A stretch of DNA of 64,000 bases. Source: Acutalibacteraceae bacterium (GTDB lineage: Bacteria > Bacillota > Clostridia > Oscillospirales > Acutalibacteraceae). How positions within the stretch are numbered: the stretch's first letter is position 1; every line of letters begins with the position of its first letter. The stretch lies in contig JAZRRG010000042.1 in assembly GCA_045650565.1 (NCBI GenBank), forward strand, positions 19,546 to 83,545, given 5' to 3'. Of the stretch, positions 2,433 through 19,939 are shown piece by piece. The notes under the pieces were generated by a model. It searched no databases and was not told where the DNA came from. It worked only from the letters and a program-made list of their open reading frames with translations. The position numbers and the translations under genes were made by a program.

Positions 2433-2467
2433 CACCACTTTAGCGTGATAAAGCGGTGTATTTTTAT
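2433..2467 (+). terminator. Rho-independent terminator after the TM-anchored SBP gene
   Basis: Stem caccacttta/taaagcggtg (9 of 10 bp), 6-nt loop, then tattttta. Confidence 0.6.
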
Positions 2468-2505
2468 GCAATTACGACAAAAATTAAAAAAATTTTAAAA
2501 AACAC

Positions 2506-2534
2506 TTTACAACTTTAGCATAGTGAAGTATAAT
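2506..2534 (+). promoter_or_regulatory. SigA-type promoter for the amino-acid ABC operon
   Basis: TTTACA (2506-2511), 17-nt spacer, TATAAT (2529-2534). Confidence 0.6.
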
Positions 2535-2579
2535 AGGAGCATAACATTAAACGGCAAGAGCCAAAAGGAGTAATTCAAA

Positions 2580-3365: not shown

Positions 3366-3383
3366 TAAACACGGAGAATAAAT

Positions 3384-4079: not shown

Positions 4080-4081
4080 GT

Positions 4082-4900: not shown

Positions 4901-6079
4901 ATGAAGCGAATAATATGTATGATTTTAACGCTTGCTCTGCTGTTTACATTTTGCGGATGTTCTGATAAAAACAAAGGGGGCGATGTGGTGAAAAACTCTT
5001 TTACCGAAAAACCGAGAACCTATAATAAGGGTACGGGCGAAGAGTGGACATTGGCCAACACATATAACTGCCTAACAAATAAAAAGCAGCTCAATGTAGC
5101 GTATATTGGCGGTTCGGTAACGGTGGGCTCGGGTTCGAGTAAGGGAAATTCGTGGCGAGAGCTTACAACCGTCTGGCTTAAAAGTAGATATCCGAATTCT
5201 ACAATAAATGAAATATATGCAGCCATTGGCGGAACAGGTTCACAATGGGGGCTTTTCAGACTAAAAGAGGATGTTTTGGCACATAACCCCGATTTAGTGT
5301 TTATTGAGTTTTGCATAAATGACAGTTATGAGTTTTTCAGCGAAACCGAGAGCGCTGCCTTTGCTGATGCAATGGTAAGGGAAATAAATGAGCATAATAA
5401 AGATACCGACATTGTGTTTGTGTTTGTAACCGATGAGGGTAAGCTTGGCACCGATTTTGCAAACAAGGTGAGCTACCGCAAGGTTGCCGAATATTACGGA
5501 GTTCCTTATATTGACGCAGGCAAGGCGCTGGTTAATGAAATGAACGAAACGGGGAACGATTGGCGGTATTATGTGAGAGACTGGGCACACCCTAACGACA
5601 AGGGGTACGCAGCATACGCTAAAGAGGTTGAAAGGTGCCTTGGTGAGTGGCTGGAGGCGGCCGCTAAAGTTGAGGCAAAGCCACATATATTAAGCCAAAC
5701 ACCTGCAGTTACCAACAGTTTGCAGAACATAAGGCGAATAGAACCGAGTGAGTTAAATTACGATGAAAATTGGCGGCTTGATGATACCCCTAAAATGAGC
5801 ATCGGCAACCAAACAATACTTGAGGCACGTAAGGTGGGTGCCCAAATAACACTTGAGTTCGAGGGCACACAGGTAGGATATATATACTATGCCAAAACAA
5901 ACGGCAATATAAAGGTTACAGTAGATGGCTCAAACGAAAAAATCATAGAGGCGGAGGAAGGCATGAAAACCCTTTCGGAAAAAATTGTGTACGACAATTT
6001 AACCGAGGGCACACACACGTTAACTATCGAATGGGTCGGACCGGGGTATTTTTGCATAGGAGCATTATTCGTAGGATAA
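4901..6079 (+). CDS. SGNH/GDSL-family hydrolase lipoprotein with a C-terminal beta-sandwich-like extension
   Basis: Lipobox LFTFCGC. Block I IGGSVTVGSG, block III FIEFCINDS, block V DWAHPNDKGY. Confidence 0.7.
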   Translation: MKRIICMILTLALLFTFCGCSDKNKGGDVVKNSFTEKPRTYNKGTGEEWTLANTYNCLTNKKQLNVAYIGGSVTVGSGSSKGNSWRELTTVWLKSRYPNSTINEIYAAIGGTGSQWGLFRLKEDVLAHNPDLVFIEFCINDSYEFFSETESAAFADAMVREINEHNKDTDIVFVFVTDEGKLGTDFANKVSYRKVAEYYGVPYIDAGKALVNEMNETGNDWRYYVRDWAHPNDKGYAAYAKEVERCLGEWLEAAAKVEAKPHILSQTPAVTNSLQNIRRIEPSELNYDENWRLDDTPKMSIGNQTILEARKVGAQITLEFEGTQVGYIYYAKTNGNIKVTVDGSNEKIIEAEEGMKTLSEKIVYDNLTEGTHTLTIEWVGPGYFCIGALFVG

Positions 6080-6116
6080 AAAAAGCGCATAGAAGGATTT
6101 CCTTCTATGCGCTTTT
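6078..6116. terminator. Bidirectional terminator between convergent genes
   Basis: aaaaaagcgcatagaagg-attt-ccttctatgcgctttt, a perfect stem flanked by an A-run and a T-run. Confidence 0.8.
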
Positions 6117-6121
6117 ACTTG

Positions 6122-7012
6122 TCATACAAGAGGAGACCAGCCGCTTTCGTCCTCTGAAACGACGAAGGAGGGACCCTTACCGCCGGAATCACCAGAGCTC
6201 GTGCTGTCAGAACTGCCGCTGTCAGAACTTGTAGTGTCAGAACTTGTAGTGTCAGAGCTTGTGCTGTCAGAGCTTGTGTCTTCGGATGAGGAATTCTCTG
6301 AACTGCTATCCCCCGAAGTGTTATCCTCGGGAATTTCCTCCTTCTTTTGCTCCTCATTGGTTTCGGTTTCGATTTTATCAATGAGGTCCTCCTTGCCAAG
6401 CTCGTTAACAAGGTTAACTATCTCGGTTACCGAAAGCCCTATAAGGTCCTCCGCCTTTAATTTGTTGTTTTCTTTTTGTAATCGCATACAAAGATGTGCC
6501 TTTGCGTAAGAAACGCTATATTTATCGGCAAGCTTTTGCACATCATCCTGCTTTACCTTGATATATAACGAATAGATGCGCGCATTCGGAGCGTGGGTCT
6601 TGAGAACGGTTTTAAAATAACCTGAAAGGGTTTCAAAATCCTGTTCGTTTCTGCTCTCAACCGCAAAAAGCAGAACTTCTTCTTGGCCTAGTGAGAGCTT
6701 TTTCGCATCAATTAAATTTTTTAAAAATGTGTCCATCGCTTGAGAAAACGAAACCGATGAACCTATTTTTTCCACAAGAAAACAATCGGTATTGCTATAG
6801 GTTTGGGCGTTCGTTACGGCATATAGCTCGTTGTTAAGCGTGAACGAAGCCGACACCGAGTTATCAACGGTAACGGTTATATATTCAGCAGGAACGGGCG
6901 TCTTTTTAGGTGACAAAATAGACACCACCACTGCCGCAATTGCGATTACCGCAACAAGACCGAGCGCAATAACGCAAATAAGTTTATGTCTTTTATTCAA
7001 AGTAATACCCAT
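6122..7012 (-). CDS. Single-pass membrane protein of unknown function with a Ser/Asp/Thr-rich low-complexity C-terminal tail
   Basis: N-terminal TM helix LICVIALGLVAVIAIAAVVVSIL, a globular domain of about 190 aa, then SSSENSSSEDTSSDSTSSDTTSSDTTSSDSGSSDSTSSGDSGG. A consensus promoter lies upstream. Confidence 0.6.
   Translation of the reverse strand: MGITLNKRHKLICVIALGLVAVIAIAAVVVSILSPKKTPVPAEYITVTVDNSVSASFTLNNELYAVTNAQTYSNTDCFLVEKIGSSVSFSQAMDTFLKNLIDAKKLSLGQEEVLLFAVESRNEQDFETLSGYFKTVLKTHAPNARIYSLYIKVKQDDVQKLADKYSVSYAKAHLCMRLQKENNKLKAEDLIGLSVTEIVNLVNELGKEDLIDKIETETNEEQKKEEIPEDNTSGDSSSENSSSEDTSSDSTSSDTTSSDTTSSDSGSSDSTSSGDSGGKGPSFVVSEDESGWSPLV
6192..6281. repeat. Six imperfect tandem copies of a 15-nt unit inside the CDS (encodes pentapeptide SSD(T/S)x repeats on the minus strand)
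   Basis: Plus-strand units: accagagctcgtgct, gtcagaactgccgct, gtcagaacttgtagt (x2), gtcagagcttgtgct, gtcagagcttgtgtc. Confidence 0.85.
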
Positions 7013-7058
7013 AAATTATTATCCTCTTCATTGCTTTATTTTAATTATTACAATTATA

Positions 7059-7086
7059 ATTATAAATAAACGAGAAAAATTGTCAA
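7059..7086 (-). promoter_or_regulatory. SigA-type promoter for the 6122-7012 gene
   Basis: On the minus strand: TTGACA (7086-7081), 16-nt spacer, TATAAT (7064-7059). Confidence 0.6.
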
Positions 7087-7240
7087 TATGATTTTATTTT
7101 CCACCACAATATTTGGGGTTAAAACAACAAAAAAGCACAAATTGTGCCAACCTAAAAAAAGAGATTAAAAATAAAAGGTTTTTTTGTGATAAATCTTACA
7201 AAAAAGCGCCATCTTTTTGAGGAATCTTGGTCAAAATCAC

Positions 7241-7269
7241 TTGACAAAAGCCCTTTAATTTGGTACTAT
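7241..7269 (+). promoter_or_regulatory. SigA-type promoter (extended -10) for the carbohydrate-uptake operon
   Basis: TTGACA (7241-7246), 17-nt spacer ending in TGg, TACTAT (7264-7269). Confidence 0.55.
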
Positions 7270-7352
7270 TATACAGTAAATAATGTGGTGTATTATATTT
7301 ATTTATAATATATAATAGCCACGCAGCAATAAACTTTAAGGAGAAGTGAGTT

Positions 7353-10244
7353 ATGAAGAAGTGCTTTGCAATATTATTAGTTTTAATAATTGCATTGACC
7401 ACCTGTTCAGCAGTGTGCTTTGCCGAGTCGGCTGCAGCGGATGCTCAAGGAAACACATCCGATACAGTTACACAGGCAGCGAAGGACACATACAATGCGT
7501 ATTTGCAGGAAAATGCCTCTTTTACTGATGCCAAAAGCAGCATCGTAATAAAGGCGGATGCTTATACTGCACTGGATGATGCGGCAGCGGTTACAAAGGT
7601 TGGCCAATATACCGACGAGGAGAAGGAAACTCGTGACGGGGTTATTAAGGTTACAGGAGAAAAGGGTAAAATTACCTATAAATTTACCGTAACCGAAGCG
7701 GGTTTTTATGATATTACTTTGTCGTATTGTCCCATCGCCGGTCGTGGACTGCCGCTTGCCTTCAGCTTTCTTGTTGATGGCGAGAGTCCTTACAATGCAA
7801 TGCAAACCATTCGCTTTGAGCGTACCTTTGTTGACCAAAAGCCCGAGGGCGTTGATGACGGCAGAGGAAATGTATACGCTTCGGAGCAGATAGAGAAGTT
7901 TATATTTAAGGATATAAAGGCGCGGGAGAAGACGGGTCAGTGCGTAGACCCCATTAAGGTTGCATTAACCGAGGGTGAGCACACAATAACCATTATTGTT
8001 GAGTCGGGCGAAAGCTATCTTCAGGCAATAACACTCGGCGCACCCGAGCAAACACCCACCTATGCTGAATATAAGCAGCAGGTTTCAGGCGCCAACTATA
8101 CCGGCAAAGAAATACATATTGAAGCCGAAAATGCAAAGTATAAAAGCACATCTTCAACAACACCTCTTATTGATAACAGTGACCCGAGCGTACAAAGCGT
8201 TCACGAAACGGGTGCCTTTAAGGAGGTTACAAACTTTATAGGTTCTACGGGTTGGCAGACCCCCAACGAGACAATTACTTGGGAGGTTGATGTCCCTGAG
8301 GACGGCTTCTATAAGGTTGCTTTCCGTTTCCGTCAGGACCAGGTTATTAACGGTAACTCATACCGCAGTTTAAAAATTGATGGCGTAAGCCCGTTCGCCG
8401 AGGCGAAGGAAATCCCGTTCTCTTACGGCGGTGACTGGAAATTCCAGGAATTCCAAATTGACGGCGAGGCAGCCCTCATTTATCTCACAAAGGGTACCCA
8501 CGAGGTTAGTATGACCGTAACAATGGGTAGATTCGGTGACATAAGCCGCCGCCTTAATGATATTACATACGAGATAAGTGACCTTTATCTTAAAATCCGT
8601 ATGATTACGGGTGATAAGATCGACTCGGGAAGAAGCTACGAGTTCTTCGAGCAGATTCCGGGCTTTAACGAAACACTTACTACCAACATCGCACGTCTTG
8701 AAGAAATTTGCGATGAAATAACCGAAATCACGGGTGAGAAAACAGGCACCTACACTTCTACAATTAAAAATATGATTCGTGTTATGGATGAGCTTTACAG
8801 TAATCCCTACACAGCTCAAAAATATGTAAGTTCATATTATGACAGCTACTGTTCGGTTGCTGCTCTTGTGGCTGACATCGCAGCCCTCCCGCTTGATTTA
8901 GACCAAATTATACTTGCCGCACCCGAAGCTGAGTATGAAATGGAAATGAAGGGCTTCTGGGAAAAGACCACATATTCATTTGAACGCTTTGTAGCATCCT
9001 TTATGGATGATTACAAATACTCAACCGATAATGTTGACGGAAAAACCACCTTAACAATATGGGTTACTTGGGGACGTGAGCAAACACAAATCTTAACATC
9101 TCTTGTTAAAGATTCTTTCGAAACACAGCATCCCGATGTAAACGTTAATATTCAGATAGTTGGCGCAACACTCGTTCAGGCAATACTTTCGGGCGCAGGT
9201 CCTGATGTACTGATAGGTCAGGTAAGGTCCGAGCCGGTCAACTACGGTATGCGTGGTGCGTTGCTGCCGCTCAACGAGATGGATGGCTATGAGGAGGTGC
9301 TAACCCGCTTCCAGCCGAGTGCGGTAGACCCCTATGTGCTCAATGGTGTAACATACGGTATTCCTCATACACAAACCTTCTCGATTATGTTCTACCGCAC
9401 CGACACATTTAAGTCGTTAGGACTAACCGAGGATGATGTTCCGAAAACCTGGGAAGAATTTAGAAATCTTACAGCACTTTTGCAAAGGCAAAACTTTAAG
9501 GTTGCGCTTCCCGGTGCGGGTGAGTTGGGCATATATGCTACATTATTAAGACAGCGTGGCATAGAGCTTTACAACCCGAAGGGAACCACAACCAATATGA
9601 CCGACGGTAAAGCAGTTGAAGCGTTTGTATATTGGACCGATTTCTATACAAACCTAGGATTTGACTTAACATTTAGCTTCTACAACCGTTTCCGTGACGG
9701 TACAATGCCGTTAGGCGTCGCTCCGTATAGTGATTACGTATTGTTCTCCCAAGCGGCACCTGAAATTGCAGGTAAATGGGCCATTGCTCCAATGCCCGGA
9801 ACCGAGCAGGAGGACGGCACCATAAACTATACACAGGCCGATGGCGGTACCTGTTGTGTAATTCCCGCTATTTCAAGACATCCCGACGTGGCTTGGGACT
9901 TCATTAAATGGTGGACCACCGACACCATTCAGTATAGATATTCAATAATGGTTGAAGCGGTACTCGGTGAGGTAGGCCGTGTGCAAACCGCTAACATTGA
10001 AGCCATTAAAAAGCTTTCCTGGGAATCAAACGACCTTGATATAATTTTAGAGACCTGGGAAGATGTTGAGGGACTCGTTGAGGTTCCCGGTGGTTACTAC
10101 GTAACACGTTCTGTATATCAGGCGTTCTGGAACGTTGTAAACATTAAAGAAAACCCCAAGGATATGATAGTTAAATGGGGTAAGGTAGCAAATGAAGAAA
10201 TCACGAGAAAGAGAAAGGAGTACGGCCTTGAGTATGAAAAATAA
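7353..10244 (+). CDS. Large extracellular protein: two CBM6/35-like modules fused to a family-1 (sugar) ABC substrate-binding domain
   Basis: SPase-I-type signal peptide (…SAVCFA/ES). Two related modules carry DGESPY / DGVSPF and GFYDITLSY / GFYKVAFRF, and the second opens with IHIEAENAKY. The C-terminal half looks like SBP_bac_1 (LTIWVTWGREQTQIL..., GPDVLIGQ, YGIPHTQTF). Confidence 0.75.
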   Translation: MKKCFAILLVLIIALTTCSAVCFAESAAADAQGNTSDTVTQAAKDTYNAYLQENASFTDAKSSIVIKADAYTALDDAAAVTKVGQYTDEEKETRDGVIKVTGEKGKITYKFTVTEAGFYDITLSYCPIAGRGLPLAFSFLVDGESPYNAMQTIRFERTFVDQKPEGVDDGRGNVYASEQIEKFIFKDIKAREKTGQCVDPIKVALTEGEHTITIIVESGESYLQAITLGAPEQTPTYAEYKQQVSGANYTGKEIHIEAENAKYKSTSSTTPLIDNSDPSVQSVHETGAFKEVTNFIGSTGWQTPNETITWEVDVPEDGFYKVAFRFRQDQVINGNSYRSLKIDGVSPFAEAKEIPFSYGGDWKFQEFQIDGEAALIYLTKGTHEVSMTVTMGRFGDISRRLNDITYEISDLYLKIRMITGDKIDSGRSYEFFEQIPGFNETLTTNIARLEEICDEITEITGEKTGTYTSTIKNMIRVMDELYSNPYTAQKYVSSYYDSYCSVAALVADIAALPLDLDQIILAAPEAEYEMEMKGFWEKTTYSFERFVASFMDDYKYSTDNVDGKTTLTIWVTWGREQTQILTSLVKDSFETQHPDVNVNIQIVGATLVQAILSGAGPDVLIGQVRSEPVNYGMRGALLPLNEMDGYEEVLTRFQPSAVDPYVLNGVTYGIPHTQTFSIMFYRTDTFKSLGLTEDDVPKTWEEFRNLTALLQRQNFKVALPGAGELGIYATLLRQRGIELYNPKGTTTNMTDGKAVEAFVYWTDFYTNLGFDLTFSFYNRFRDGTMPLGVAPYSDYVLFSQAAPEIAGKWAIAPMPGTEQEDGTINYTQADGGTCCVIPAISRHPDVAWDFIKWWTTDTIQYRYSIMVEAVLGEVGRVQTANIEAIKKLSWESNDLDIILETWEDVEGLVEVPGGYYVTRSVYQAFWNVVNIKENPKDMIVKWGKVANEEITRKRKEYGLEYEK

Positions 10245-11148
10245 TATACAAGCAAAGAAACATAAGAATTCATTTGGCGGTAGCGAATTTTCAATGCTGG
10301 TTATAGCATTGCCGTTCCTTATTCTCTTCTTTATAATGACGGTTTTACCGATAATCACATCGCTGTTTTTGAGCTTCTGCTCGTACGATACAATATCGTC
10401 ACCGAAGTGGATTGGTCTTGAAAACTATCTGCGTATGTTTGTAACCGATGATATGTTCGGGAAGGTTGCATCAAATACGCTATTGTTTGCGGTTATAACC
10501 GCACCTGCGGGCTTCTTGCTCTCATATGTTTTGGCGTGGTTTATAAATGAGTTCAACCCCGCAGTAAGAAGCTTTTTGTCCTTCCTTTTCTTCGCACCTA
10601 ATCTTGTAGGTAATGCATACTTTATTTGGCAGACTGCATTTAGCGGAGATGCCTATGGTTATGTTAACAGCACGTTGTTAAGCTTGGGCTTTATCAATTC
10701 GCCTATTCAGTGGCTTAAGGATGCAAACTATATAGTACCGATTATTATCGGTGTAACAATTTGGGCGAGTATGGGTGTATCCTTCTTGGCGGATATTGCC
10801 GCACTTCAAAGTATTAACGTATCCTTGTTTGAGGCAGGTGCTATTGATGGTATCAGAAACAGATGGCAGGAGTTATGGTATATAACCCTTCCTTCTACAA
10901 AGGAAATTCTTTTGTTCGGTGCCGTTATGCAAATTGCAAGTTCCTTCTCGATAGGACCGGTTATTACAACAATGTGTACCTATCCTACAGTTAACAACTG
11001 CGCCGATACGATAGTCATGTATCTGGTCGACATATCTCACACCCGAATGGAAATGGGATACGCCTCGGCGATTTCGGTATTTCTTTTTGGTATGATGGCA
11101 ATTTTCCGTGTTGTAATCGGAAAACTGCTCAGCAGAGTAGGTAAGTAA
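10234..11148 (+). CDS. Carbohydrate ABC transporter permease (MalF/LplB-like)
   Basis: Six-TM pattern with an EAA loop (FEAGAIDGIRNRWQELWYITLPSTKE). Start is ATG 10234 or in-frame TTG 10228, which sits 7 nt after AAGGAG. The longer ORF from 10192 overlaps the SBP gene. Confidence 0.85.
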   Translation: MKNNIQAKKHKNSFGGSEFSMLVIALPFLILFFIMTVLPIITSLFLSFCSYDTISSPKWIGLENYLRMFVTDDMFGKVASNTLLFAVITAPAGFLLSYVLAWFINEFNPAVRSFLSFLFFAPNLVGNAYFIWQTAFSGDAYGYVNSTLLSLGFINSPIQWLKDANYIVPIIIGVTIWASMGVSFLADIAALQSINVSLFEAGAIDGIRNRWQELWYITLPSTKEILLFGAVMQIASSFSIGPVITTMCTYPTVNNCADTIVMYLVDISHTRMEMGYASAISVFLFGMMAIFRVVIGKLLSRVGK

Positions 11149-11161
11149 GGGGGTATAACAA

Positions 11162-12058
11162 TTGTTTAAGAAATTAAAAGGTTTTAAACTGCTTGGCGGC
11201 GGCGAACTGCAGTATAAGCGTTATACCCGTTCCAAATTTGTCAGCGCAATATTTGTTATATTCCTTTTGACATTTGGTCTTGTATGCGTTCTTCCGCTTA
11301 TCTACTGTGTAGCAACGTCCTTAAAGCCGCTGGACGAGATTCTTATATTCCCGCCCAGGTTCTTTGTAAGACGTCCCACTATAGCAAACTACACATTGTT
11401 GCCCAGCTTGCTTTCAAAGCTTAAGGTTCCGCTGTCACGTTATGTGTTCAATACTGTGTTTATAACAATAGTAGGAACCATTACACACATTTTGGCAGCA
11501 GCCGCTGCAGCATTTTTCTTCTCAAAATGTAAGAAAAAATGGGTTGGCATTGTGTTCTTAGTTGTACAGTTCTCGCTTCTTTATAACGGTACAACACTTG
11601 GTGTTCCCCAGTACATCATTTTCTCAAAAATGGGTATTATCGATACATATTGGGTTTACATTTTACCGCACATTCCGAGTGCGATGGGTGTATTCCTTAT
11701 GAAGCAGTATATGGACGGTTCGGTTCCCGACTCGCTTTTAGAGGCGGCTCGAATCGACGGCGCAGGATATCCGCTTATATTCTGGAAGATAGTAATGCCT
11801 ATGGTAAAGCCCGCATGGTTAACGCTTTTACTGTATGCCTTCCGTGATATGTGGGCGACACAGTCGGCAACCACGATATTTACCGAATCCTTAAAGACAT
11901 TACCTGCTGCTATGAGTCAGATTACAAATGCAGGTGTTGCCCGTACGGGTAGCGCCATGGCAACCACCGTTATTCTTATGATTCCGCCAATTCTCGTTTA
12001 CTTGATTTCTCAAAGTAACGTATTGGAAACCATGAGTAATGCCGGTATGAAGGATTAG
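11162..12058 (+). CDS. Carbohydrate ABC transporter permease (MalG/LplC-like)
   Basis: TTG start after a GGGGG RBS. EAA loop LEAARIDGAGYPLIFWKIVMPMVKP. Confidence 0.85.
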   Translation: MFKKLKGFKLLGGGELQYKRYTRSKFVSAIFVIFLLTFGLVCVLPLIYCVATSLKPLDEILIFPPRFFVRRPTIANYTLLPSLLSKLKVPLSRYVFNTVFITIVGTITHILAAAAAAFFFSKCKKKWVGIVFLVVQFSLLYNGTTLGVPQYIIFSKMGIIDTYWVYILPHIPSAMGVFLMKQYMDGSVPDSLLEAARIDGAGYPLIFWKIVMPMVKPAWLTLLLYAFRDMWATQSATTIFTESLKTLPAAMSQITNAGVARTGSAMATTVILMIPPILVYLISQSNVLETMSNAGMKD

Positions 12059-12073
12059 TAGAGGGGAAGAAAT

Positions 12074-14224
12074 ATGAAGAAAATGAAACGTATTTTATCA
12101 ATCATTCTTGTATTGGCTTGCCTTTGTACTATGTCTGTGGGAATCACAGCGAGTGCTGCTGATTTCACAGATTCCTCCAACGATGCGGCGACAAAGTGGT
12201 TAACTGGTTCCAACAAGGAAAAATTTGTATATTCACGCCCAATGTTCGACGATTTACCGATGGTAACAGCGGGAGATATGGGCGTAGGAGAATTCGGTGA
12301 GTTGGCTGATATTTTCGCCATTGACGGTAAGATTTACTTGCTTGACGGCGGCAACACCGAAGCACAGCCAAAGGGCCGAGTAATCGTTCTTGATGAAAAC
12401 TATAAAAAGTTAGATGAGTTTTCGCAGGTGTACTATAACGGTGAGGCATTGGAATTTGCAAGAGCCAAGGGTATCTTGGTGCACAACGGTTTAATGTATA
12501 TTTGCGATACAATACATTCACGTGTATTGGTTGTTGATGAGAATCATAATGTTGTTCGTATGTTCGAAAAGCCCGAAAGTGATATGTGGCCGAACGACCT
12601 TAACTTTAATCCTGTTAAAATAGTTATCGATAAAATGGATTACATATATATCCTTTGCGACGGCTCGTTTTACGGTGCTGCTATGTTTGAACCCGAAACC
12701 TATGAATTTACAGGATTTTTTGGTGCAAACGTAGTATCAACAACAGTTCTTGGCGCTGTCAATAATCTTTGGGATATGCTTTTCACCAACAACACCAAGC
12801 TTTCAAAGAGTCAGAAAACACTTCCGTTCTCATTTGTTGATATGGTGCTTGGCGCTGACGGTTATTTGTATACCTGTACAGGTTACACAAAGAATGCCTC
12901 AACAGGTGCGGTAAGACGACTAAACCCAACGGGTAACAATATCCTTGTTGATAAGAGTAAGGGCGGTGCAACCGACTCAAGCAACGTTGTTTTCGGTACT
13001 ACCGAGGCGGCAAAATCAAAGGGTATGAAAATATCCCATAACATCAACTCTATAACGGTTGATGACCAAAATTATATATATGTATTGGACTCAAACTACG
13101 GTAGAATATATATGTATGATACCGAGTGTAATCTTATTTGCACAATAGGCGGCGGTATTGGTGATGGTATACAGAAGGGAACCTTCCGTGGCTCCAAGGC
13201 AATAACCTCGATGGGCGATAAGATTTATGCAATAGATTATGTTAAAAGAGGCATTATCACTTTTGAGAAAAACGATTACGGTAGAATGGTGCAGCAGGCA
13301 CAAACAATGACTATGGCGGGCGACTATACCGATGCCGCAGTTATTTGGAATGATGTAGTTGCCCTCGACCGCAACTCGATTATCGCTTACCGTGGTCTTG
13401 CAAAGGCAGCTTTGCTTGAGGACCGCTATCAAGACGCTATGGATTACGCACTTATGGGTTATGACCGTAACACATACAGTCAGGCGTTTGATTATGTGCG
13501 CACCGAGTTCATGGAAAAGCACTTTACGGCAATTTTCGTAGGCGCAATTATTCTGGTTGTTGCCATCATACTGCTTTTGCGTTTCAAGAAAAAGCGCAAC
13601 ATAGTGCTTATTAAAAACCATAAGCTCAAAATTGCGTTGGGAACAATGTTCCATCCGGCAGATACCTTCTACGAAATCAAGCGTAACAATAACGGTTCGG
13701 TTGTCATCGCAACGGTAATGCTGTTCCTATGGTATGTAGGTAAAATTTTGGGCTACGGCAGTGGTTTCATCTTCAACAAGACCGATATTGGTGAGGCAAA
13801 CGCTTGGTATGCATTGGCTCAAACAATAGGACTTGTGTTATTGTTTGTATGTGCAAACTGGTTGGTTTGCGTATTGTTTGAGGGTAAGGGTAAGCTAAAG
13901 GATATTTATGTGGCAACCTGCTACAGCATAATGCCGCTTATTATAAATTCCTTTGCGTATGCCATTCTTGCCAATGTATTAACGCTTGAAGAGGCAAGTA
14001 TTATAAGCATTCTAAACGGAGCATGTGTGCTCTTTACGGGTATCCTGCTTGTAATGTCAATAATAACCGTTCAGGAATTCACATTCGGCAAGTTCATATT
14101 TACAACAATTGTAACACTTTTGGCGATGATTCTTGTTGTGTTCCTTATTTTCTTAATAGTAATTTTGTTACAACAGTCAGCAGACTTCATCAAGACCGTG
14201 TACTTAGAAGCGGTTTACCGATAA
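12074..14224 (+). CDS. Fusion membrane protein: signal peptide, NHL-like beta-propeller, TPR-like segment, C-terminal Yip1-type multi-TM domain
   Basis: Repeated propeller-blade motifs (GKIYLLDGGN, GLMYICDTIHSRVLVVD, YIYILCDGSFYGAAMFE, YLYTCTG, YIYVLDSNYGRIYMYD, DKIYAIDYVKRGIITF). A TPR-like stretch (AYRGLAKAALLEDRYQDAMDYALMGY). Then five or six TM helices preceded by FHPADTFYEIKRNNNGS, typical of Yip1-domain proteins. Confidence 0.6.
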   Translation: MKKMKRILSIILVLACLCTMSVGITASAADFTDSSNDAATKWLTGSNKEKFVYSRPMFDDLPMVTAGDMGVGEFGELADIFAIDGKIYLLDGGNTEAQPKGRVIVLDENYKKLDEFSQVYYNGEALEFARAKGILVHNGLMYICDTIHSRVLVVDENHNVVRMFEKPESDMWPNDLNFNPVKIVIDKMDYIYILCDGSFYGAAMFEPETYEFTGFFGANVVSTTVLGAVNNLWDMLFTNNTKLSKSQKTLPFSFVDMVLGADGYLYTCTGYTKNASTGAVRRLNPTGNNILVDKSKGGATDSSNVVFGTTEAAKSKGMKISHNINSITVDDQNYIYVLDSNYGRIYMYDTECNLICTIGGGIGDGIQKGTFRGSKAITSMGDKIYAIDYVKRGIITFEKNDYGRMVQQAQTMTMAGDYTDAAVIWNDVVALDRNSIIAYRGLAKAALLEDRYQDAMDYALMGYDRNTYSQAFDYVRTEFMEKHFTAIFVGAIILVVAIILLLRFKKKRNIVLIKNHKLKIALGTMFHPADTFYEIKRNNNGSVVIATVMLFLWYVGKILGYGSGFIFNKTDIGEANAWYALAQTIGLVLLFVCANWLVCVLFEGKGKLKDIYVATCYSIMPLIINSFAYAILANVLTLEEASIISILNGACVLFTGILLVMSIITVQEFTFGKFIFTTIVTLLAMILVVFLIFLIVILLQQSADFIKTVYLEAVYR

Positions 14225-14242
14225 ACACAAAGGAGGATAAAA

Positions 14243-16474
14243 ATGAAAAATATTTTATTGAAAATAGTATCATTCATCCTTTGTGCTTTGATGCTTGTTT
14301 CCTTTGCAGGATGCACGGGGGGAACCGAATATACACATGTGTTGGATGAATTCAAAACTCAGATGCTTCATCGCAACGAGGTTATTGAGAATGAAAAACT
14401 CACACTCAGTTGGGATGCGGTTAACAAGTGCGTAATATTAACCGATAAGGCAACAGGTGTTCAGTGGACCACCTCGCCCTACGGATATTTAGAGGGTACA
14501 GAGCGTCCGGCGATGCAAAAGAAATATGTTGAATCGCCCATTCACGTTAAGTACCTTGAGAATTATGAGTTCCAAGAGGGAACCTCACCTGACCCTGCGG
14601 ATGACTACGGTTATGTGGCGTTAAGGGATTCAGAGGTAAGGGTTGAGAAGGACGCAAATTCCTTCACAATAACCTTCTGCTTTGAGCAATCAAACTCTAT
14701 AATACCCCTTAAGTACACACTTAAGGAGGATTGCCTTGCGGTTTCAATTAACACCGATGATATAGTGGAGTATGAAGACCCGCTATACTCAATCGCATTT
14801 TTACCCACCTTCGCTGCAGTAAAGAAGGGTACCCAGAACAGCTATATGTTCTATCCTTCGGGTAGCGGTGCTTTGATAGATACATCCAACACAAACCTCG
14901 TGGATGTAACCTACTCTGCGGGTGTATACGGCAACGATGCCGCAAGAAAAATCAGAGATAAGCTCACAAATGATAAAAATGTTTATTTGCCGGTATTCGG
15001 TACCGTTGTTGGTGACAATGCTATTTGCGGAATCATCACTTCGGGAGCTGAGCATGCGACAATAAACTACAGCACAAAATATGAGAGAACCGACTACACT
15101 GCTATATATCCCGAGCTTCACTTAAGAGGATACGACTTTAACACTGTAAAGGGAAATATTAGGCAAGAGGAAACGGCTATTTATGCGGGCGAAATTTTAA
15201 GCGGTTCGGTTTTCGAGGTAGAGTATTATCCGTTGTCGGGCGATGACGCAAGCTACAACGGTATGGCACAGCTCTATCAGAAAAAGCTTTACGGTGATAA
15301 CCAAGGTGCCGATATTACGGAGGATGTATATTCTTTAAAGGTGTACGGCGGTCTGCTTGAGAAAAAGGATATTATTGGCTTCCCATACTATTCCTTGTTG
15401 GCTCTTACAACCTATGATGATGTAAGTAAAATGTTAAGCGAATTGTCATCCACCGGTGTAACCCCCAACGTTCAGCTTTATGGCTTTGGTGCGTCGGGCT
15501 TGGATGCAGATAAGGTTGCGGGCGGCTTTAAGTTAGGCAGTGCATTTGGTAATACCAAGCAGCTTGGCAGTCTTGTTAATTACTGTGATACAAACAACAT
15601 TGATATGTTTGTTGATTTTAACCTTACCGAGTACAAAACCGGCTCTTTAGGTTATAGCGCAATGTTTGATACGGCTAAGACCGCCAATAAACAAGCGGCA
15701 TACCTATATCACATTGACAAATCGGTACAGACACAGGATAGCACAAACTATGAGCGTTTCCGCTTACTCAAGCGTGACAAGGTGCTCAAAGTGGCAAATA
15801 CACTTGTTAAGAAAATTAACAAGTACAGTTTGCCCGGTGTTAGCTTTGCATCTCTTACAAGCACGGCATATTCCGACTATTCATCAAGTGAGTATTATGT
15901 TAAAAAGAATATGTCAAGCTTTACGACAGGTATTTTGAACAGTTATAAAGAAAGCGGCTACAACACTGCAGCCAACGGAGCAAATGCTTATGCTGCATTA
16001 GCGGCTGACTGTGTGTTCGAAACACCTACAAGCTCAAGCGAGTTAGATGTATTCTGGACCGATGTTCCGTTCTATCAAATGGTGTTTAAGGGCAAAACCG
16101 AAATCACTACTGAGGCAGTAAATGCAGGCGAAGTGTTGAGCGTTAAGCAGTTAAAGGCACTTGAGTCGGGCACATCCATGTTGTTCTATGTTTACAACAC
16201 CTATGATTCGGTTCTTACATATTCACCTTATAAGGGACTTTACGGTGCTTTATATGAGGATAATAAGGACGACATCGTTAAGGCGGCAGAGGAATATAAG
16301 GATTACTATTCGGCAATAAGCGGTCAAACAATTACAAATCACGAATTGCTTACTGACGATGTACGCTGCACCACCTTCTCAAATGGTGTTAAGATATATG
16401 TAAACTATTCGGATACAGATTATATGTTTGCGGGCAACTCGGTGCCTGCAGGCGGATATCTTATAGTTAAATAG
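14243..16474 (+). CDS. 743-aa lipoprotein of unknown function; possibly the family catalogued as DUF5696 (recalled from memory, unverified)
   Basis: Lipobox LVSFAGC and an AAGGAGG RBS. I recognise no catalytic motif. It is embedded between the two ABC permease pairs. Confidence 0.55.
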   Translation: MKNILLKIVSFILCALMLVSFAGCTGGTEYTHVLDEFKTQMLHRNEVIENEKLTLSWDAVNKCVILTDKATGVQWTTSPYGYLEGTERPAMQKKYVESPIHVKYLENYEFQEGTSPDPADDYGYVALRDSEVRVEKDANSFTITFCFEQSNSIIPLKYTLKEDCLAVSINTDDIVEYEDPLYSIAFLPTFAAVKKGTQNSYMFYPSGSGALIDTSNTNLVDVTYSAGVYGNDAARKIRDKLTNDKNVYLPVFGTVVGDNAICGIITSGAEHATINYSTKYERTDYTAIYPELHLRGYDFNTVKGNIRQEETAIYAGEILSGSVFEVEYYPLSGDDASYNGMAQLYQKKLYGDNQGADITEDVYSLKVYGGLLEKKDIIGFPYYSLLALTTYDDVSKMLSELSSTGVTPNVQLYGFGASGLDADKVAGGFKLGSAFGNTKQLGSLVNYCDTNNIDMFVDFNLTEYKTGSLGYSAMFDTAKTANKQAAYLYHIDKSVQTQDSTNYERFRLLKRDKVLKVANTLVKKINKYSLPGVSFASLTSTAYSDYSSSEYYVKKNMSSFTTGILNSYKESGYNTAANGANAYAALAADCVFETPTSSSELDVFWTDVPFYQMVFKGKTEITTEAVNAGEVLSVKQLKALESGTSMLFYVYNTYDSVLTYSPYKGLYGALYEDNKDDIVKAAEEYKDYYSAISGQTITNHELLTDDVRCTTFSNGVKIYVNYSDTDYMFAGNSVPAGGYLIVK

Positions 16475-16487
16475 GGAGGTGAACAGT

Positions 16488-17393
16488 ATGTTTAAAAGTA
16501 AAACAAAAAAGCATAAGGGCGTTGAACAACTTAAAAGCAGATACGGCAGACTGTTCGTTCTTCCTTGGGAAATAGGTTTAGTACTGTTCTTCTTCGTTCC
16601 GATTATCACATCTATTCGTTATGCCTTCAGCGAAATCAGTATGACAAATGAGGGCTTTGAGGTTGGCTGGGTTGGACTTAGGTGGTTCAAGTACTATCTG
16701 ATGGAGGATGCTAACTATCTTAACGAGCTGACATCATCTATTACAAGCTTCCTTGTCCAAATTCCGCTGATTTTGGCGTTGAGTCTTATACTTGCAATTA
16801 TCTTGAACCAAAAGTTCGCCGGTCGTACCTTAGCACGTGCGATATTCTTCCTACCTGTTATTATCGCAACGGGTGTAATTATTAACATTATGACCAGTGA
16901 ATATGTAAATGTAAGTCTTGTAGCGTCGGCGGGTAGTGATACAAGCTACAACAGTATGATAGACTTTGAGCAAATTCTCGGAAACTTAGGTCTACCTGAT
17001 GAAATAAACAACCTAATAGCAGGGTACATAGGCGACATCTTCAATTTGCTGTGGTCGTGCGGTGTTCAAATCATCCTGTTTATTGCTGGACTTCAAACCA
17101 TACCCGACCAGCTATACGAGGTTTCCCGAGTTGAAGGCGCTTCCAAGTGGGAAGAGTTCTGGTATATAACAATACCCATGCTTGGCAACACAATACTGTT
17201 GGTTATGGTATATACGATGATAGATATGTTCACAAAGAAAGCCGGCGTAATGAAAATGGCGGTTGACTTTATGAACAAGGCGGTTTACGACAGAAGCTCT
17301 GCGATGCTATGGATGTACTTCCTTGTAGTAGGCGCCATAATGGCTATAGTTGTAGGAGTTTACAACAAGCTGTGCTTGAAGAAATGGTCTTAA
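16488..17393 (+). CDS. Carbohydrate ABC transporter permease (second system, MalF-like)
   Basis: ATG 16488 lies 8 nt after GGGAGG (the ORF track starts at GTG 16479). EAA loop YEVSRVEGASKWEEFWYITIPMLGN. Confidence 0.85.
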   Translation: MFKSKTKKHKGVEQLKSRYGRLFVLPWEIGLVLFFFVPIITSIRYAFSEISMTNEGFEVGWVGLRWFKYYLMEDANYLNELTSSITSFLVQIPLILALSLILAIILNQKFAGRTLARAIFFLPVIIATGVIINIMTSEYVNVSLVASAGSDTSYNSMIDFEQILGNLGLPDEINNLIAGYIGDIFNLLWSCGVQIILFIAGLQTIPDQLYEVSRVEGASKWEEFWYITIPMLGNTILLVMVYTMIDMFTKKAGVMKMAVDFMNKAVYDRSSAMLWMYFLVVGAIMAIVVGVYNKLCLKKWS

Positions 17394-17405
17394 GGAGGGG
17401 CAGTA

Positions 17406-18362
17406 ATGATTAAAGTTAAAAACAATAAAATCAATGCCCGTAAATTAGGCAAAACCGGAGCCAGAGTTGTTATTCCAATAGTCAGATGGGTGTTCCTGCT
17501 TTCAATCAGTTACATTCTTTTGTATCCGTTGTTTTATATGATATCAACATCGGTTAGAGCGCCGATGGACTTTGTTGATACAACGGTTATGTGGGTTCCA
17601 AAAAACTTTTCGTTCTATAACATAACAAGAGCGTTTGATTTGTTAGATTACCCCAAATCATTGTTAAGCACATTAAAGGTTGAAATTATCAGTGCCTTTA
17701 TAGAGGTGGCAACCTGTTCTATTACGGCGTATGGCTTGGCAAGATTTGAGTTTAAGGAAAAGAAGATATTAACACTTATTCTTATGCTAACAATTCTTAT
17801 TCCTACCCCTATGATAATTATTCCCTTGACCGTAAGCATGCGATATCTTGACTTCTTTGGAATTCTCGGTCTTATCGGCGAGCTTATCGGTCACAATATC
17901 CGTCCTAATCTCTTAAATACGGTATGGTCTTTCTACATACCCAGTATTTTCTCGGTGGGTTTAAAAGCGGGTTTGTTCATCTATATGTATGTTCAGTTCT
18001 TCAAGGGCTTACCTAAGGAGCTTGAGGAAGCGGCATCTATTGACGGTGCAGGACCTATCAAAACATTCCTCACCATTGTTGTGCCTTCGTCGGGAACAAT
18101 ATTCCTGACAGTTATAATATTCAGTATTATATGGCACTGGAACGATACCTATCTTTCGGTAATGTTTTTATCAAAGAATTTTCCGTTGTCGGTGGCTCTT
18201 GCCAATATAACGACAAAAATGAACGATATTTTGTTTGAGCCGAGAGCAGTAGGCATACTTATGGCGGCCTGCTTACTGGTAATTCTACCCGTGCTTATCG
18301 TTTATTGCATTTTGCAAAAACGCTTTATCAAGAGCATTGATAGAGTAGGTATAGTAGGATAA
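17406..18362 (+). CDS. Carbohydrate ABC transporter permease (second system, MalG-like)
   Basis: GGAGGGG RBS. EAA loop EEAASIDGAGPIKTFLTIVVPSSG. Confidence 0.85.
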   Translation: MIKVKNNKINARKLGKTGARVVIPIVRWVFLLSISYILLYPLFYMISTSVRAPMDFVDTTVMWVPKNFSFYNITRAFDLLDYPKSLLSTLKVEIISAFIEVATCSITAYGLARFEFKEKKILTLILMLTILIPTPMIIIPLTVSMRYLDFFGILGLIGELIGHNIRPNLLNTVWSFYIPSIFSVGLKAGLFIYMYVQFFKGLPKELEEAASIDGAGPIKTFLTIVVPSSGTIFLTVIIFSIIWHWNDTYLSVMFLSKNFPLSVALANITTKMNDILFEPRAVGILMAACLLVILPVLIVYCILQKRFIKSIDRVGIVG

Positions 18363-18407
18363 AAGGTATATTGACAGCTGACCACAAAAAGTAATTACTT
18401 TAAATGG

Positions 18408-18436
18408 TTGCTTTTTTGCGGGAAGGGTGTTACAAT
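18408..18436 (+). promoter_or_regulatory. Possible internal promoter (extended -10) ahead of the second SBP gene
   Basis: TTGCTT (18408-18413), 17-nt spacer ending in TGt, TACAAT (18431-18436). Confidence 0.4.
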
Positions 18437-18465
18437 ATAAAAAAATAAAGAGGAGGTATTTTATC

Positions 18466-19839
18466 TTGAAAAACCTTAAAAGAGTATTTGCAATACTGCT
18501 TGTAGTTGCTATGGCTCTCACAGCTGCCGGTTGCGGTGGCAACGGCGGTAACAATGGCGGCGGAACAAGTACGGGCGGTACAGGTGTTGGCGGACTGAAG
18601 GTAGAAGAGTACGCTATTGATTCTGAGGCAGTTTTAGCTTCAATGCCCTCAGAGCTTAAAGGAACCACCATTACATTCCTTAGCTGGTATGACCCTGAGG
18701 ACCGTGAGGAAAAGGATGTTATAGCAGCTTTCGAGCAAAAAACAGGCATTACTATTGAAAACCGTATTGTTGATTATGCGGGCTATGCAAACAAGGTAGC
18801 TGCGGCATTGGCTCAGGGTGAAACACCTGATGTTATGCGTATGAGACTGCCCTTGGTTGACCTTCTGAAACTGTGTCAGCCGATATCAGCTACAGGGTAT
18901 GACTTTAGCGATAAGGCATGGGATAAGAACACAATGGAGCTTTATACAGTAGGTAATAATTGCTATGGTACAAATCTCGTTTACACACCCTATTTCTTAC
19001 CCACCATGTTCTTCTATAACTCAAGTGTAATTGAGGATATGGGCTTTGATGACCCGTATGAGCTTTGGAAGGATGGCAAATGGACCTGGAGTAAGTTCAG
19101 AGACATGTGCAGCACTTGGGTTAATGAGAACGGTGCTGAGTACACAGGTGCTTGTATAATGCGTCCTACATTCCCTGCAGAAACCGCAGATTCTTCCCTT
19201 ATTAAGAAGAGTGCTGACGGTGTTACCTATGAGCTTGACTTTACAAATCAGATGGCTCTTGATTGCTGGAAGTATACACAGGAAGGCAAGCAAATGGGCT
19301 GGTTTACCAATGTAAACGATGCATTCGACCAGGCAAAGCCCAAGCTTTTGTTCGCTAGTATTGATGCTTCGGCAGTTCAGCAGTCATCGGGTTACTTTAG
19401 CAAGACCAGATTACGTGGCTACCTAAAGGGTGTTCCCGCACCTGTGTGGGACTTAACCGAGGGCTTTAATGACTATACACTTTCCATGATGGAAACCATC
19501 GGTTTCGGTATCCCGAAGGGCGCTAAGAACGCAAAGGCGGTTCCCTACTTCTTGGCATATCTTTGCAACTTTGCAAACTATAATCAAGGCGTTGGCGAAG
19601 GCGGCTTCTTCTTCAGCGAGCAGATTAAAGAGTGCTATATGGATATGATGACTATTGAAAAAAGAACATTTGATATCACTTCGCAAATTGCTGAGTACGA
19701 TGGAACCATCGAGAACTTTGGTTGGCAGTTGTTCTACAACGTAGACCCGACTCAGACAGAGCAGTGGTTACAAGAAAGAGAATATATTGTACAGAACAGT
19801 ATGAATCAGTACAACGATGTTCTCAATACTTTAAAATAG
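18466..19839 (+). CDS. Sugar ABC transporter substrate-binding lipoprotein (second system)
   Basis: TTG 18466 lies 8 nt after AGGAGG. Lipobox LTAAGCGG followed by a Gly/Asn/Thr linker. SBP_bac_1-like body. The ORF-track ATG at 18427 would put 13 residues before the signal peptide. Confidence 0.8.
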   Translation: MKNLKRVFAILLVVAMALTAAGCGGNGGNNGGGTSTGGTGVGGLKVEEYAIDSEAVLASMPSELKGTTITFLSWYDPEDREEKDVIAAFEQKTGITIENRIVDYAGYANKVAAALAQGETPDVMRMRLPLVDLLKLCQPISATGYDFSDKAWDKNTMELYTVGNNCYGTNLVYTPYFLPTMFFYNSSVIEDMGFDDPYELWKDGKWTWSKFRDMCSTWVNENGAEYTGACIMRPTFPAETADSSLIKKSADGVTYELDFTNQMALDCWKYTQEGKQMGWFTNVNDAFDQAKPKLLFASIDASAVQQSSGYFSKTRLRGYLKGVPAPVWDLTEGFNDYTLSMMETIGFGIPKGAKNAKAVPYFLAYLCNFANYNQGVGEGGFFFSEQIKECYMDMMTIEKRTFDITSQIAEYDGTIENFGWQLFYNVDPTQTEQWLQEREYIVQNSMNQYNDVLNTLK

Positions 19840-19844
19840 TTAAT

Positions 19845-19876
19845 AAAAAAGCAGAGGGTTTACCTCTGCTTTTTTT
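19845..19876 (+). terminator. Rho-independent terminator ending the 12.5 kb uptake operon
   Basis: aaaaaagcagagg-gttta-cctctgc followed by ttttttt. Confidence 0.85.
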
Positions 19877-19877
19877 A

Positions 19878-19906
19878 TTGACACAATAAAAATCATAATG
19901 TAAAAT
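19878..19906 (+). promoter_or_regulatory. SigA-type promoter for the alpha-galactosidase gene
   Basis: TTGACA (19878-19883), 17-nt spacer, TAAAAT (19901-19906). Confidence 0.6.
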
Positions 19907-19939
19907 GGATATAACAACAAATATCAAGGTGGTAAAGAT

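Follow-up and report, generated by a model that had tools for sequence, protein, structure and literature searches.

A conserved seven-gene cassette of Oscillospirales and Acholeplasmatales as the probable core of a Gram-positive glycan capture, trimming, and import machine

What do a propeller-bearing Yip1 membrane protein and a DUF5696 lipoprotein do between the permease genes of sugar ATP-binding cassette (ABC) importers? The question is raised by a 64,000-nt stretch of DNA from an Acutalibacteraceae bacterium (contig JAZRRG010000042.1; the whole stretch is called the window, and its numbering is used throughout), in which a preliminary description had marked five adjacent genes as parts of a possible glycan capture or processing machine. 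Reading the open reading frames (ORFs) with Pfam, NCBIfam, and PDB profile searches, AF2 models, and Foldseek, we consider it probable that the region is the conserved core of a Gram-positive polysaccharide utilization locus (PUL), i.e., a machine for the surface capture, trimming, and import of glycans, with seven obligatory proteins and optional ones. Gram-positive ABC-based glycan utilization loci are known as a type of system. What is new is the obligatory presence of two permease pairs, a nonlipidated solute-binding protein (SBP) fused to carbohydrate-binding modules (CBMs), a propeller-TPR-Yip1 protein, and a lipoprotein resembling glycoside hydrolase (GH) family 129, in a fixed order across two classes. 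The argument starts from what sequences and models directly establish, namely, gene anatomy, predicted topology and folds, anchoring signals, invariance, and co-divergence. The unit is made up as follows, SBP_L being the large SBP, P1 to P4 the permeases, and SBP_S the small SBP.

7241 to 7269, forward strand: sigma-70-type promoter-like site, a consensus match (TTGACA, 17 nt, TACTAT, with a TG extension) 84 nt 5' of SBP_L
7353 to 10244, forward strand: SBP_L, 963 aa, with a Sec/SPI-type signal peptide, CBM6/35-like modules, a helical region, and a family-1 SBP domain
10234 to 11148, forward strand: P1, MalF/UgpA-like permease, with UgpA/PotB/GlcT-like NCBIfam matches and the EAA loop EAGAIDGIRN...
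11162 to 12058, forward strand: P2, MalG/UgpE-like permease, with a TTG start, Pfam BPD_transp_1, NCBIfam GlcU/UgpE/MalG matches, and the EAA loop EAARIDGAG...
12074 to 14224, forward strand: NHL-TPR-Yip1 protein, 716 aa, from a Pfam Yip1 match, PDB profile matches to NHL and TPR proteins, and an AF2 model
14243 to 16474, forward strand: DUF5696 lipoprotein, 743 aa, matching PF18952 over nearly its whole length (E = 2e-128), with the lipobox FAGC (Cys24)
16479 to 17393, forward strand: P3, second MalF/UgpA-like permease, its GTG start lying 4 nt past the DUF5696 stop, with the EAA loop EVSRVEGAS...
17406 to 18362, forward strand: P4, second MalG/UgpE-like permease, with the EAA loop EAASIDGAG...
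18466 to 19839, forward strand: SBP_S, lipoprotein sugar SBP, an optional cassette member with the lipobox AAGC and a Gly-rich linker
19850 to 19877, forward strand: intrinsic terminator (GCAGAGG-GUUUA-CCUCUGC, then U7) that ends the eight-gene unit

The eight co-directional genes form one unit bracketed by the promoter-like site and the strong terminator; within it, neighboring genes overlap or are separated by 4 to 18 nt, with a single gap of about 100 nt ahead of SBP_S. The five ORFs of the preliminary description were recovered at the same coordinates and sizes (7353 to 10244, 963 aa; 10192 or 10234 to 11148; 11162 to 12058; 12074 to 14224, 716 aa; and 14243 to 16474, 743 aa), and its domain calls were borne out (SBP_bac_1 at residues 578 to 860 of SBP_L, BPD_transp_1/UgpAE/MalFG-like permeases, and Yip1 with NHL and TPR). 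Each gene was said to have its own ribosome-binding site (RBS), and GGAG-type sites indeed precede every gene of the unit. The terminator placed near 19845 was likewise found at 19850 to 19877 (dG = −19 kcal/mol, z = −6.7), with none of 200 shuffled sequences equally stable. Gaps of 13 to 18 nt hold for three junctions (P1-P2, 13 nt; P2-Yip1 gene, 15 nt; Yip1 gene-DUF5696, 18 nt) but not for SBP_L and P1, which overlap by 11 nt; the best P1 start is the ATG at 10234, 12 nt past AAAGGAG, and the alternative ATG at 10192 would give a 53-nt overlap. What has to be given up is the five-gene boundary, since P3, P4, and SBP_S share the transcription unit. The conserved module comprises the seven genes from SBP_L to P4, with two permease pairs, plus an optional second SBP. 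For the latter, the TTG at 18466, which follows GAGGAGG, is a likelier start than the GTG at 18427, where the ORF opens.

Two further features were seen inside the unit. A GC-rich 12-bp hairpin (16425 to 16454, forward strand; dG = −20 kcal/mol, z = −2.9) lies within the final 50 nt of the DUF5696 gene, just 5' of the P3 start. Lacking a proper U-tract, it might affect how far transcription reads through, or how translation is coupled, from one half of the operon to the other. The sole long intergenic gap, of about 100 nt from P4 to SBP_S (18363 to 18466, forward strand), contains a TTGACA at about 18371. An Rfam scan of positions 5500 to 23000 returned no RNA family, and hence no riboswitch or leader was detected. 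The catabolite-responsive-element pattern had no site in the promoter region and was not enriched (25 found versus 17 expected). NCBIfam, searched with all cassette proteins, gave only matches far below threshold.

The strongest evidence that these genes belong together is their conservation. Related loci were fetched through homologs of the Yip1 fusion or of DUF5696 (n = 91), and the ORFs of the first 88 were labeled by phmmer with the window proteins; a scan for two motifs of a 15-sequence DUF5696 alignment, covering one genome for each GTDB species, had yielded at least 263 relatives, from which 80 of the loci were taken. The order SBP_L-P1-P2-(NHL-TPR)-Yip1-DUF5696-P3-P4, on one strand, was found in all 91 loci wherever the contig reaches, including the three fetched later (L089 to L091). 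It is retained where the DUF5696 or Yip1 protein is only about 20 to 25% identical and also where the Yip1 gene is split, and in the 88 labeled loci each permease has its closest counterpart in the window permease of equivalent position. Pairwise distances computed for the seven proteins give strongly correlated matrices (r = 0.83 to 0.95). Mean identity is 62% for P1 and P2, 43% for SBP_L, 41% for the Yip1 protein, and 36%, the lowest, for DUF5696; low values for the last three are expected for exposed, substrate-facing parts. Two or three complete paralogous cassettes are present in 7 of 71 sampled genomes, and the DUF5696 proteins of such copies are just 30 to 54% identical.

The cassettes fall into two groups of hosts. 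One comprises Acutalibacteraceae, Oscillospiraceae, Ruminococcaceae, and "Clostridia" metagenome-assembled genomes from ruminant, chicken, rabbit, and human guts, and the other is a distant clade of Acholeplasmataceae and Izimaplasma that includes the cultured Mariniplasma anaerobium. When DUF5696 was searched exhaustively by profile, 6,658 representatives (clusters at 50% identity) were recovered, and for 3,969 of these E was 1e-30 or lower. The preliminary description had taken both the Yip1 fusion and the lipoprotein to be working components rather than passengers and had proposed conserved synteny as the test. The invariant order in 91 of 91 loci and the co-divergence support that view, with the function itself still predicted. 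It had also stated that two of the genes lack a characterized homolog, and our literature search agreed: we found no characterized ortholog, no paper on DUF5696, PF18952, or such a cassette, and nothing relevant on Yip1 with sugar ABC transporters, although a recent CAZy GH number is possible.

The anatomy of the individual proteins indicates what kind of machine this might be. SBP_L carries two CBM6/35-like beta-sandwich modules (residues ~60 to 235 and ~250 to 400), a helical region (~400 to 555), and, at 578 to 860, a family-1 sugar-binding domain (Pfam SBP_bac_1, E = 2e-25; PDB sugar SBPs such as 5ysb, E = 1.7e-14). A profile of its N-terminal half built from 25 orthologs matched the CBM35 of cycloisomaltooligosaccharide glucanotransferase (5x7g) at E = 1e-6, the first repeat of that half gave weak matches to CBM6/35 modules, and Pfam CBM_35 and Golvesin_C were matched by 12 and 21 of the 25 orthologs, respectively. 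The CBM modules and sugar SBP domain of the preliminary description therefore stand, with the correction that a lipid anchor is usually absent: the SBP_L of the window has no lipobox, and only 6 of 79 orthologs have one, the rest having A-x-A-type signal peptides. An SBP without a lipid anchor is unusual in a monoderm cell.

The NHL-TPR-Yip1 protein begins with an SPI signal peptide (residues 7 to 25), followed by an NHL propeller (~39 to 399), TPR repeats (401 to 462), a stalk with a transmembrane helix (484 to 502), and the Yip1 domain (~523 to 697). The Pfam Yip1 match (PF04893) scores 45.6 bits against a gathering score of 28.6 and covers residues 523 to 691 and profile positions 2 to 172 of 173; five hydrophobic Yip1 helices lie at 541 to 697, after the extra transmembrane helix. 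In PDB profile searches, the N-terminal 460 residues matched NHL and TPR repeats, with Pizza, TRIM, and Thin NHL proteins at E = 1e-39 to 1e-13. Searching with the AF2 model (pLDDT 82, pTM 0.70), Foldseek returned the six-bladed NHL propellers of TRIM2, TRIM71, and Thin (TM scores of 0.73 to 0.79) and also listed BtuG-type surface propellers and the BT4673 ectodomain. According to hydropathy and the positive-inside rule, the propeller and TPR repeats are predicted to face outside, and a 38-aa cytoplasmic loop with 10 Lys or Arg residues follows the transmembrane helix. In five loci (L002, L005, L089, L090, and L091), NHL-TPR and Yip1 are encoded by separate abutting or overlapping genes. We also considered the propeller as a lactonase-type enzyme, as SGL/YvrE names and faint Pfam matches would have it, and set this aside: the conserved Asp residues fit the structural NHL repeat, and the best-matching folds are nonenzymatic NHL propellers.

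The lipoprotein, in which the preliminary description saw no recognizable catalytic motif, turned out to be a clear DUF5696 member with a GH129-like predicted fold. A lipobox is present in 74 of 88 orthologs. Its AF2 model (pLDDT 88.9, pTM 0.90) consists of an N-terminal beta-sandwich, a (beta/alpha)8 barrel, and a C-terminal beta-sandwich, as in GH129 structures. The best Foldseek matches to the model were 5opq, 8rzk, and 5wzn (E = 1e-29 to 1e-20, TM scores of 0.6 to 0.72, 11 to 13% identity), led by ZgGH129 (5opq, E = 1.5e-29) and NagBb (5wzn, E = 2e-22), and then GH101, FpGalNase, GH36, and GH31. Sequence matches are much weaker. A broad DUF5696 profile matched 5opq at E = 8e-9, but over residues 41 to 86 only; a narrower one matched GH129 at E = 0.07, in three collinear segments that are each nonsignificant alone, namely, the N terminus, the stretch from LPVFG/MPWWG through YxGMAKxYQ/YVDMAKVYQ, and the C-terminal sandwich. 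A strand 3 resembling GH13 region I was also seen, and no Pfam GH family was matched. The models and profiles thus show homology with retaining alpha-glycosidase-type folds, from which an enzymatic role is predicted; the weak matches and low identity fit a separate family better than they fit GH129 itself.

Several polar residues of DUF5696 are well kept among the 77 cassette sequences: position 232 is Asp or Glu in all of them, position 545 has Asp in 74 and Asn in the other 3, 76 keep N581 and N627, and 69 keep E641. D545 lies near barrel strand 4, and an acidic position follows 44 to 48 residues further on, a spacing that we take to be like that between nucleophile and acid/base residue in GH129. 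D545 and D589/E593 are candidate catalytic residues. A reciprocal pattern was seen at positions 206 and 545, with Ser206 and Asp545 in Oscillospirales, Asp206 and His or Ser545 in the distant Acholeplasmatales type, and Asp at both positions in an intermediate group; it may reflect migration of a functional carboxylate.

BPD_transp_1 is matched by three of the four permeases, and UgpA/E, MalF/G, or GlcT/U models are weakly matched by all four. BPD_transp_1 permeases that depend on an SBP and carry EAA loops act in import, the EAA loop being the part that couples to the ATPase; with EAA motifs at residue 200 of P1, 194 of P2, 214 of P3, and 208 of P4, P1P2 and P3P4 are, by these motifs, two complete type-I (CUT1-like) ABC importer membrane modules. 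No ORF of the cassette has a Walker A or LSGGQ motif, and the sole ABC ATPase in the window (4082 to 4840) sits in an amino acid transporter operon, so that a shared MsmK/MsmX-type ATPase is presumably encoded elsewhere. Supply of the ATPase in trans is common for CUT1 systems of Firmicutes. The amino acid operon in question (1666 to 4840, forward strand) is of the polar amino acid ABC type; next to single permease and ATPase genes, it contains a tandem pair of genes for family-3 SBPs.

SBP_S is a second sugar SBP (Pfam SBP_bac_1, E = 7.5e-13, and SBP_bac_8), with a lipobox in 53 of 55 homologs. A homolog was labeled in 57 of 88 loci, in 49 of them directly 3' of P4; roughly one-third of the loci that could accommodate it lack it, and in the Acholeplasmatales type it is found upstream. 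SBP_S thus appears to be an add-on to the seven-gene core, which fits the long gap between P4 and SBP_S.

If the core is constant, its surroundings are not. Two enzyme genes flank the cassette of the window.

19940 to 22123, forward strand: GH36 alpha-galactosidase (Pfam Melibiase, E = 7e-152, with GH36 N- and C-terminal domains), without a signal peptide
4901 to 6079, forward strand: GDSL/CE2-like esterase (Pfam Lipase_GDSL_2), an upstream neighbor kept in the closest relatives

The GH36 enzyme, presumably cytoplasmic, has its own promoter-like site (19878 to 19906, 11/12 matches). GH36 adjoins the cassette in 17 loci, nearly always just downstream, and is here a substrate-specific accessory gene of this cassette copy. 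With the product of the L019 upstream gene, in which CE2_N is found as well, the esterase shares 39% identity, and its flank cluster occurs in 5 loci; it is probably a deacetylase for the same substrate. The closest relatives keep both the esterase and a divergently transcribed 296-aa membrane protein (see below), which, along with GH36, suggests that this copy handles alpha-galactosides or fragments of acetylated galacto(gluco)mannan.

Elsewhere, proteins with a GH16 domain, often with a type-I dockerin, are encoded directly upstream of cassettes (e.g., L031, 2 to 2917, and L040, 884 to 2890), and proteins of 1,000 to 2,100 aa with Listeria-Bacteroides repeats, CBM4_9, or dockerins are encoded directly downstream (e.g., L026, 15517 to 21474, and L039, 15598 to 19713). 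A flank cluster with both GH16 and giant-repeat proteins is found in 42 loci and hints at a link between the importer and cellulosome-like or cell surface enzyme display in Oscillospirales. Further recurrent neighbors are GH3, GH63-like, GH26, GH130, and GH1 enzymes, xylose-isomerase-like TIM barrels, GDSL/CE2 esterases, and beta-helix proteins. Genes for AraC regulators are found beside 18 of the related cassettes; in the window, no regulator gene stands next to the cassette, though transporter and enzyme genes (GH36, esterase, and GH129-like DUF5696) are present. This combination of a constant core, variable enzymes, and several copies per genome is the organization of a PUL.

Next downstream of the cassette, the Acholeplasmatales clade has genes for DUF624, NamZ, NagZ-type GH3, a BcrAD_BadFG kinase-like protein, a MurQ-type SIS etherase, and NagB. 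From the families it encodes, the NamZ-to-NagB set is one for the catabolism of N-acetylmuramic acid and N-acetylglucosamine, and its association with the cassette in wall-less hosts suggests that peptidoglycan may be scavenged by organisms that do not make it. Loci of this Acholeplasmatales/Izimaplasma type are L005, L089 (Mariniplasma anaerobium, AP024412, 1803558 to 1826161), L090, and L091, and they have an SBP with Ig domains upstream.

Based on these observations, we propose the following working model, in which we infer the substrate, the enzyme activity, the interactions, and how the two translocons share the work. Variable secreted enzymes (such as the GH16-dockerin and GH26 proteins of related loci) would release oligosaccharides; for the window copy, plant alpha-galactosides or fragments of acetylated galacto(gluco)mannan are the probable products. 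SBP_L would catch such fragments by means of its CBM modules, with the TPR/propeller ectodomain of the Yip1 protein as the most plausible membrane tether for this unanchored SBP, and SBP_L would then hand its ligand to P1P2. DUF5696, most likely an enzyme of the retaining alpha-glycosidase type, would trim the captured glycan at the membrane surface, and P3P4 may take in a second class of products, fed by SBP_S if present. The Yip1 membrane domain might act as a translocon assembly subunit, by analogy with YknW, and the cytoplasmic GH36 would complete the breakdown.

Compared with known systems, the cassette is closest to the CUT1 importers of Gram-positive PULs (MalEFGK2, MsmEFGK, and Roseburia and Bifidobacterium loci with a shared MsmK). 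It shares with them family-1 SBPs, MalF/MalG-type permease pairs with EAA loops, an ATPase encoded elsewhere, GH36, esterase, and AraC genes nearby, and cytoplasmic finishing enzymes. Unlike those loci, it always keeps two permease pairs together, its main SBP is ~950 to 1,050 aa long with two CBM6/35-like modules and no lipid anchor, NHL-TPR-Yip1 and DUF5696 are obligatory between the permease pairs, and the core is fixed while the surrounding enzymes vary. GH129 enzymes (the 3,6-anhydro-D-galactosidase ZgGH129, 5opq/8rzk, and the alpha-N-acetylgalactosaminidase NagBb, 5wzn) have the same three-domain architecture as the DUF5696 model (Foldseek TM scores of 0.62 to 0.72). In contrast to them, DUF5696 is a lipoprotein of an ABC operon, only 11 to 13% identical, that has no evident acid/base residue and a putative activity predicted from its fold.

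For the Yip1 part, the only precedent that we found is YknWXYZ of Bacillus, in which a bacterial Yip1 membrane protein is encoded with an ABC transporter, as here; YknW, a Yip1-family protein, is reported to be needed for the ABC transporter YknXYZ and to modulate its assembly (PMC4887032). YknW, however, is a small, stand-alone Yip1 protein of a MacB-type peptide-toxin exporter with a membrane fusion protein, whereas the Yip1 domain here is joined, by fusion or coupling, to an extracellular propeller-TPR region of 480 aa in the locus of an SBP-dependent sugar importer. The logic of a fixed transport and capture core with surface lipoprotein enzymes or binders, duplicated cores, and substrate-specific neighbors and regulators recalls Sus-like utilisomes, and a surface beta-propeller beside a transporter recalls the BtuG lid on BtuB, BtuG being among the Foldseek matches. 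The analogy is organizational alone: there is no outer membrane, TonB-dependent transporter, or SusD, and the components are unrelated in sequence. Pfam and NCBIfam found no SusC or SusD domain in any cassette gene, and the hosts are monoderm Clostridia or wall-less Acholeplasmatales.

A number of findings weigh against the proposed machine and have to be set beside the conservation. First, the candidate catalytic residues of DUF5696 are not fully conserved: no second invariant carboxylate was found in the barrel (D589 is Asp in 59 of 77 sequences, and E593 is acidic in 60 of 77), and in the Acholeplasmatales-type sequences P0204, P0205, P0208, and P0209, position 545 is His or Ser, with Asp at 206. 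Second, the flanking GH families vary with the presumed substrate (alpha-galactoside, beta-glucan, mannan, or peptidoglycan) around an unchanging DUF5696, and such constancy amid changing presumed substrates favors a generic or structural role over that of a substrate-specific hydrolase. Third, about one-third of the cassettes have no second SBP beside P3P4 and thus no evident feeder for that translocon. Fourth, SBP_L could be retained simply through an uncleaved signal peptide. Fifth, the substrate of the window copy is suggested solely by its neighbors GH36 and the GDSL/CE2-like esterase. Lastly, the site at 7241 to 7269, given as the promoter in the preliminary description, does exist and is plausible as the promoter of the unit, yet it is a consensus match without statistical support, as such sites are no more common in the region than in shuffled sequences (41 found versus 39 expected).

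The points concerning DUF5696 and the missing feeder are those on which the best-surviving alternative draws. DUF5696 might be a noncatalytic pseudo-glycosidase that serves as the receptor or lid of P3P4 and occupies the usual position of an SBP gene, so that the cassette would consist of two importers with unusual receptors, P1P2 being served by SBP_L and P3P4 by DUF5696, alone or together with the propeller. The order SBP_L-P1-P2 is indeed paralleled by DUF5696-P3-P4, with P3 always directly 3' of DUF5696, 4 nt away in the window and overlapping it in L002 to L004, and the residues conserved across the whole DUF5696 family are mostly Gly or Pro. The constancy of DUF5696 and the loss of the nucleophile candidate in one clade keep this idea alive. 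We nonetheless regard it as unlikely. The retention of D545 in 74 of 77 Oscillospirales sequences and the near-invariance of N581, N627, and D232 resemble a preserved active or ligand site, and changes at D545 show no correlation with the presence or absence of SBP_S, although the pseudo-enzyme receptor would predict that loss of D545 goes with absence of SBP_S. Type-I importers, moreover, are known to dock only periplasmic-binding-protein folds of classes I and II, not GH folds.

We judge it quite improbable that the locus encodes two ordinary, independent sugar ABC importers, with the Yip1 protein (as an adhesin or glycan binder) and DUF5696 (as an exo-glycosidase) co-regulated but physically separate. 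Gram-positive glycan loci do often mix transporters and surface enzymes without complexes, each gene here has its own RBS, and SBP_S is a fully standard lipoprotein SBP. Independent genes, however, normally shuffle, whereas order and content are fixed here in every locus, in two classes, among paralogs, and at ~20% identity, and the four permeases hold both position and orthology. In addition, the ectodomain is fused to Yip1 rather than to a simple anchor, the genes overlap when split, and SBP_L has no anchor of its own. Hardly credible is a third possibility, that NHL-TPR-Yip1 is a transmembrane sensor or regulator or that the cassette exports or assembles a surface glycan instead of importing a nutrient: extracellular propeller/TPR domains do occur in sensors (e.g., the BT4673 ectodomain of a one-component system, among the Foldseek matches), and the window cassette adjoins no regulator gene, but on the cytoplasmic side NHL-TPR-Yip1 has the basic 38-aa loop and otherwise only short loops, without any kinase, helix-turn-helix, or other output domain, AraC regulators stand beside many related cassettes, permeases of this kind are importers, and the neighbors (GH36, GH3, MurQ, and NagB) are catabolic.

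The capture, trimming, and import machine therefore remains our preferred reading of the cassette. A bolder version of it, which we consider doubtful, is that the seven core proteins form one physical monoderm "utilisome" supercomplex, that the DUF5696-Yip1 pair is a PUL signature in the manner of SusC/SusD, and that DUF5696 founds a new GH family. In such a supercomplex, the Yip1 domain would bridge two ABC translocons, the ectodomain would tether the CBM-SBP, and the GH129-like lipoprotein would process glycan at the transporter mouth; the signature would mark PULs in Oscillospirales and in wall-less Acholeplasmatales.

Oscillospirales (Acutalibacteraceae, Oscillospiraceae, and Ruminococcaceae) are abundant and mostly uncultured fiber degraders of the guts of humans and livestock, and their glycan uptake is less known than the Sus systems. 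The seven-gene core is a potential marker with which to find and classify their glycan loci, as SusC/D pairs are for Bacteroidota. It also gives a testable role to bacterial Yip1 proteins and to DUF5696, with its thousands of sequence clusters, and raises the testable questions of how a nonlipidated SBP is retained on a monoderm cell and why two permease pairs stay together. For the peptidoglycan-scavenging idea, the cultured Mariniplasma anaerobium offers an experimental entry point.

Some further genes of the window lie around the cassette. On its upstream side, the reverse strand (6122 to 7012) encodes a divergently transcribed 296-aa protein with one N-terminal transmembrane helix, a Ser/Asp/Thr-rich tail, and no Pfam family, preceded by a perfect 12/12 sigma-70 consensus promoter (7086 to 7059, reverse strand). 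It is 63% identical to the protein encoded at the same position in L009, and the gene lies upstream of the cassette in L009 to L015. Farther downstream, a 2,379-aa ORF (29571 to 36707, forward strand) has BspA-type leucine-rich repeats (LRR_5, E = 6.5e-94) and is probably a surface adhesin. Directly 3' of GH36, a V/A-type ATPase operon (22299 to 29093, forward strand) encodes a DUF2764/subunit C-like protein, the A subunit, subunit I, and other components, with a promoter-like site ahead of it at 22155 to 22183.

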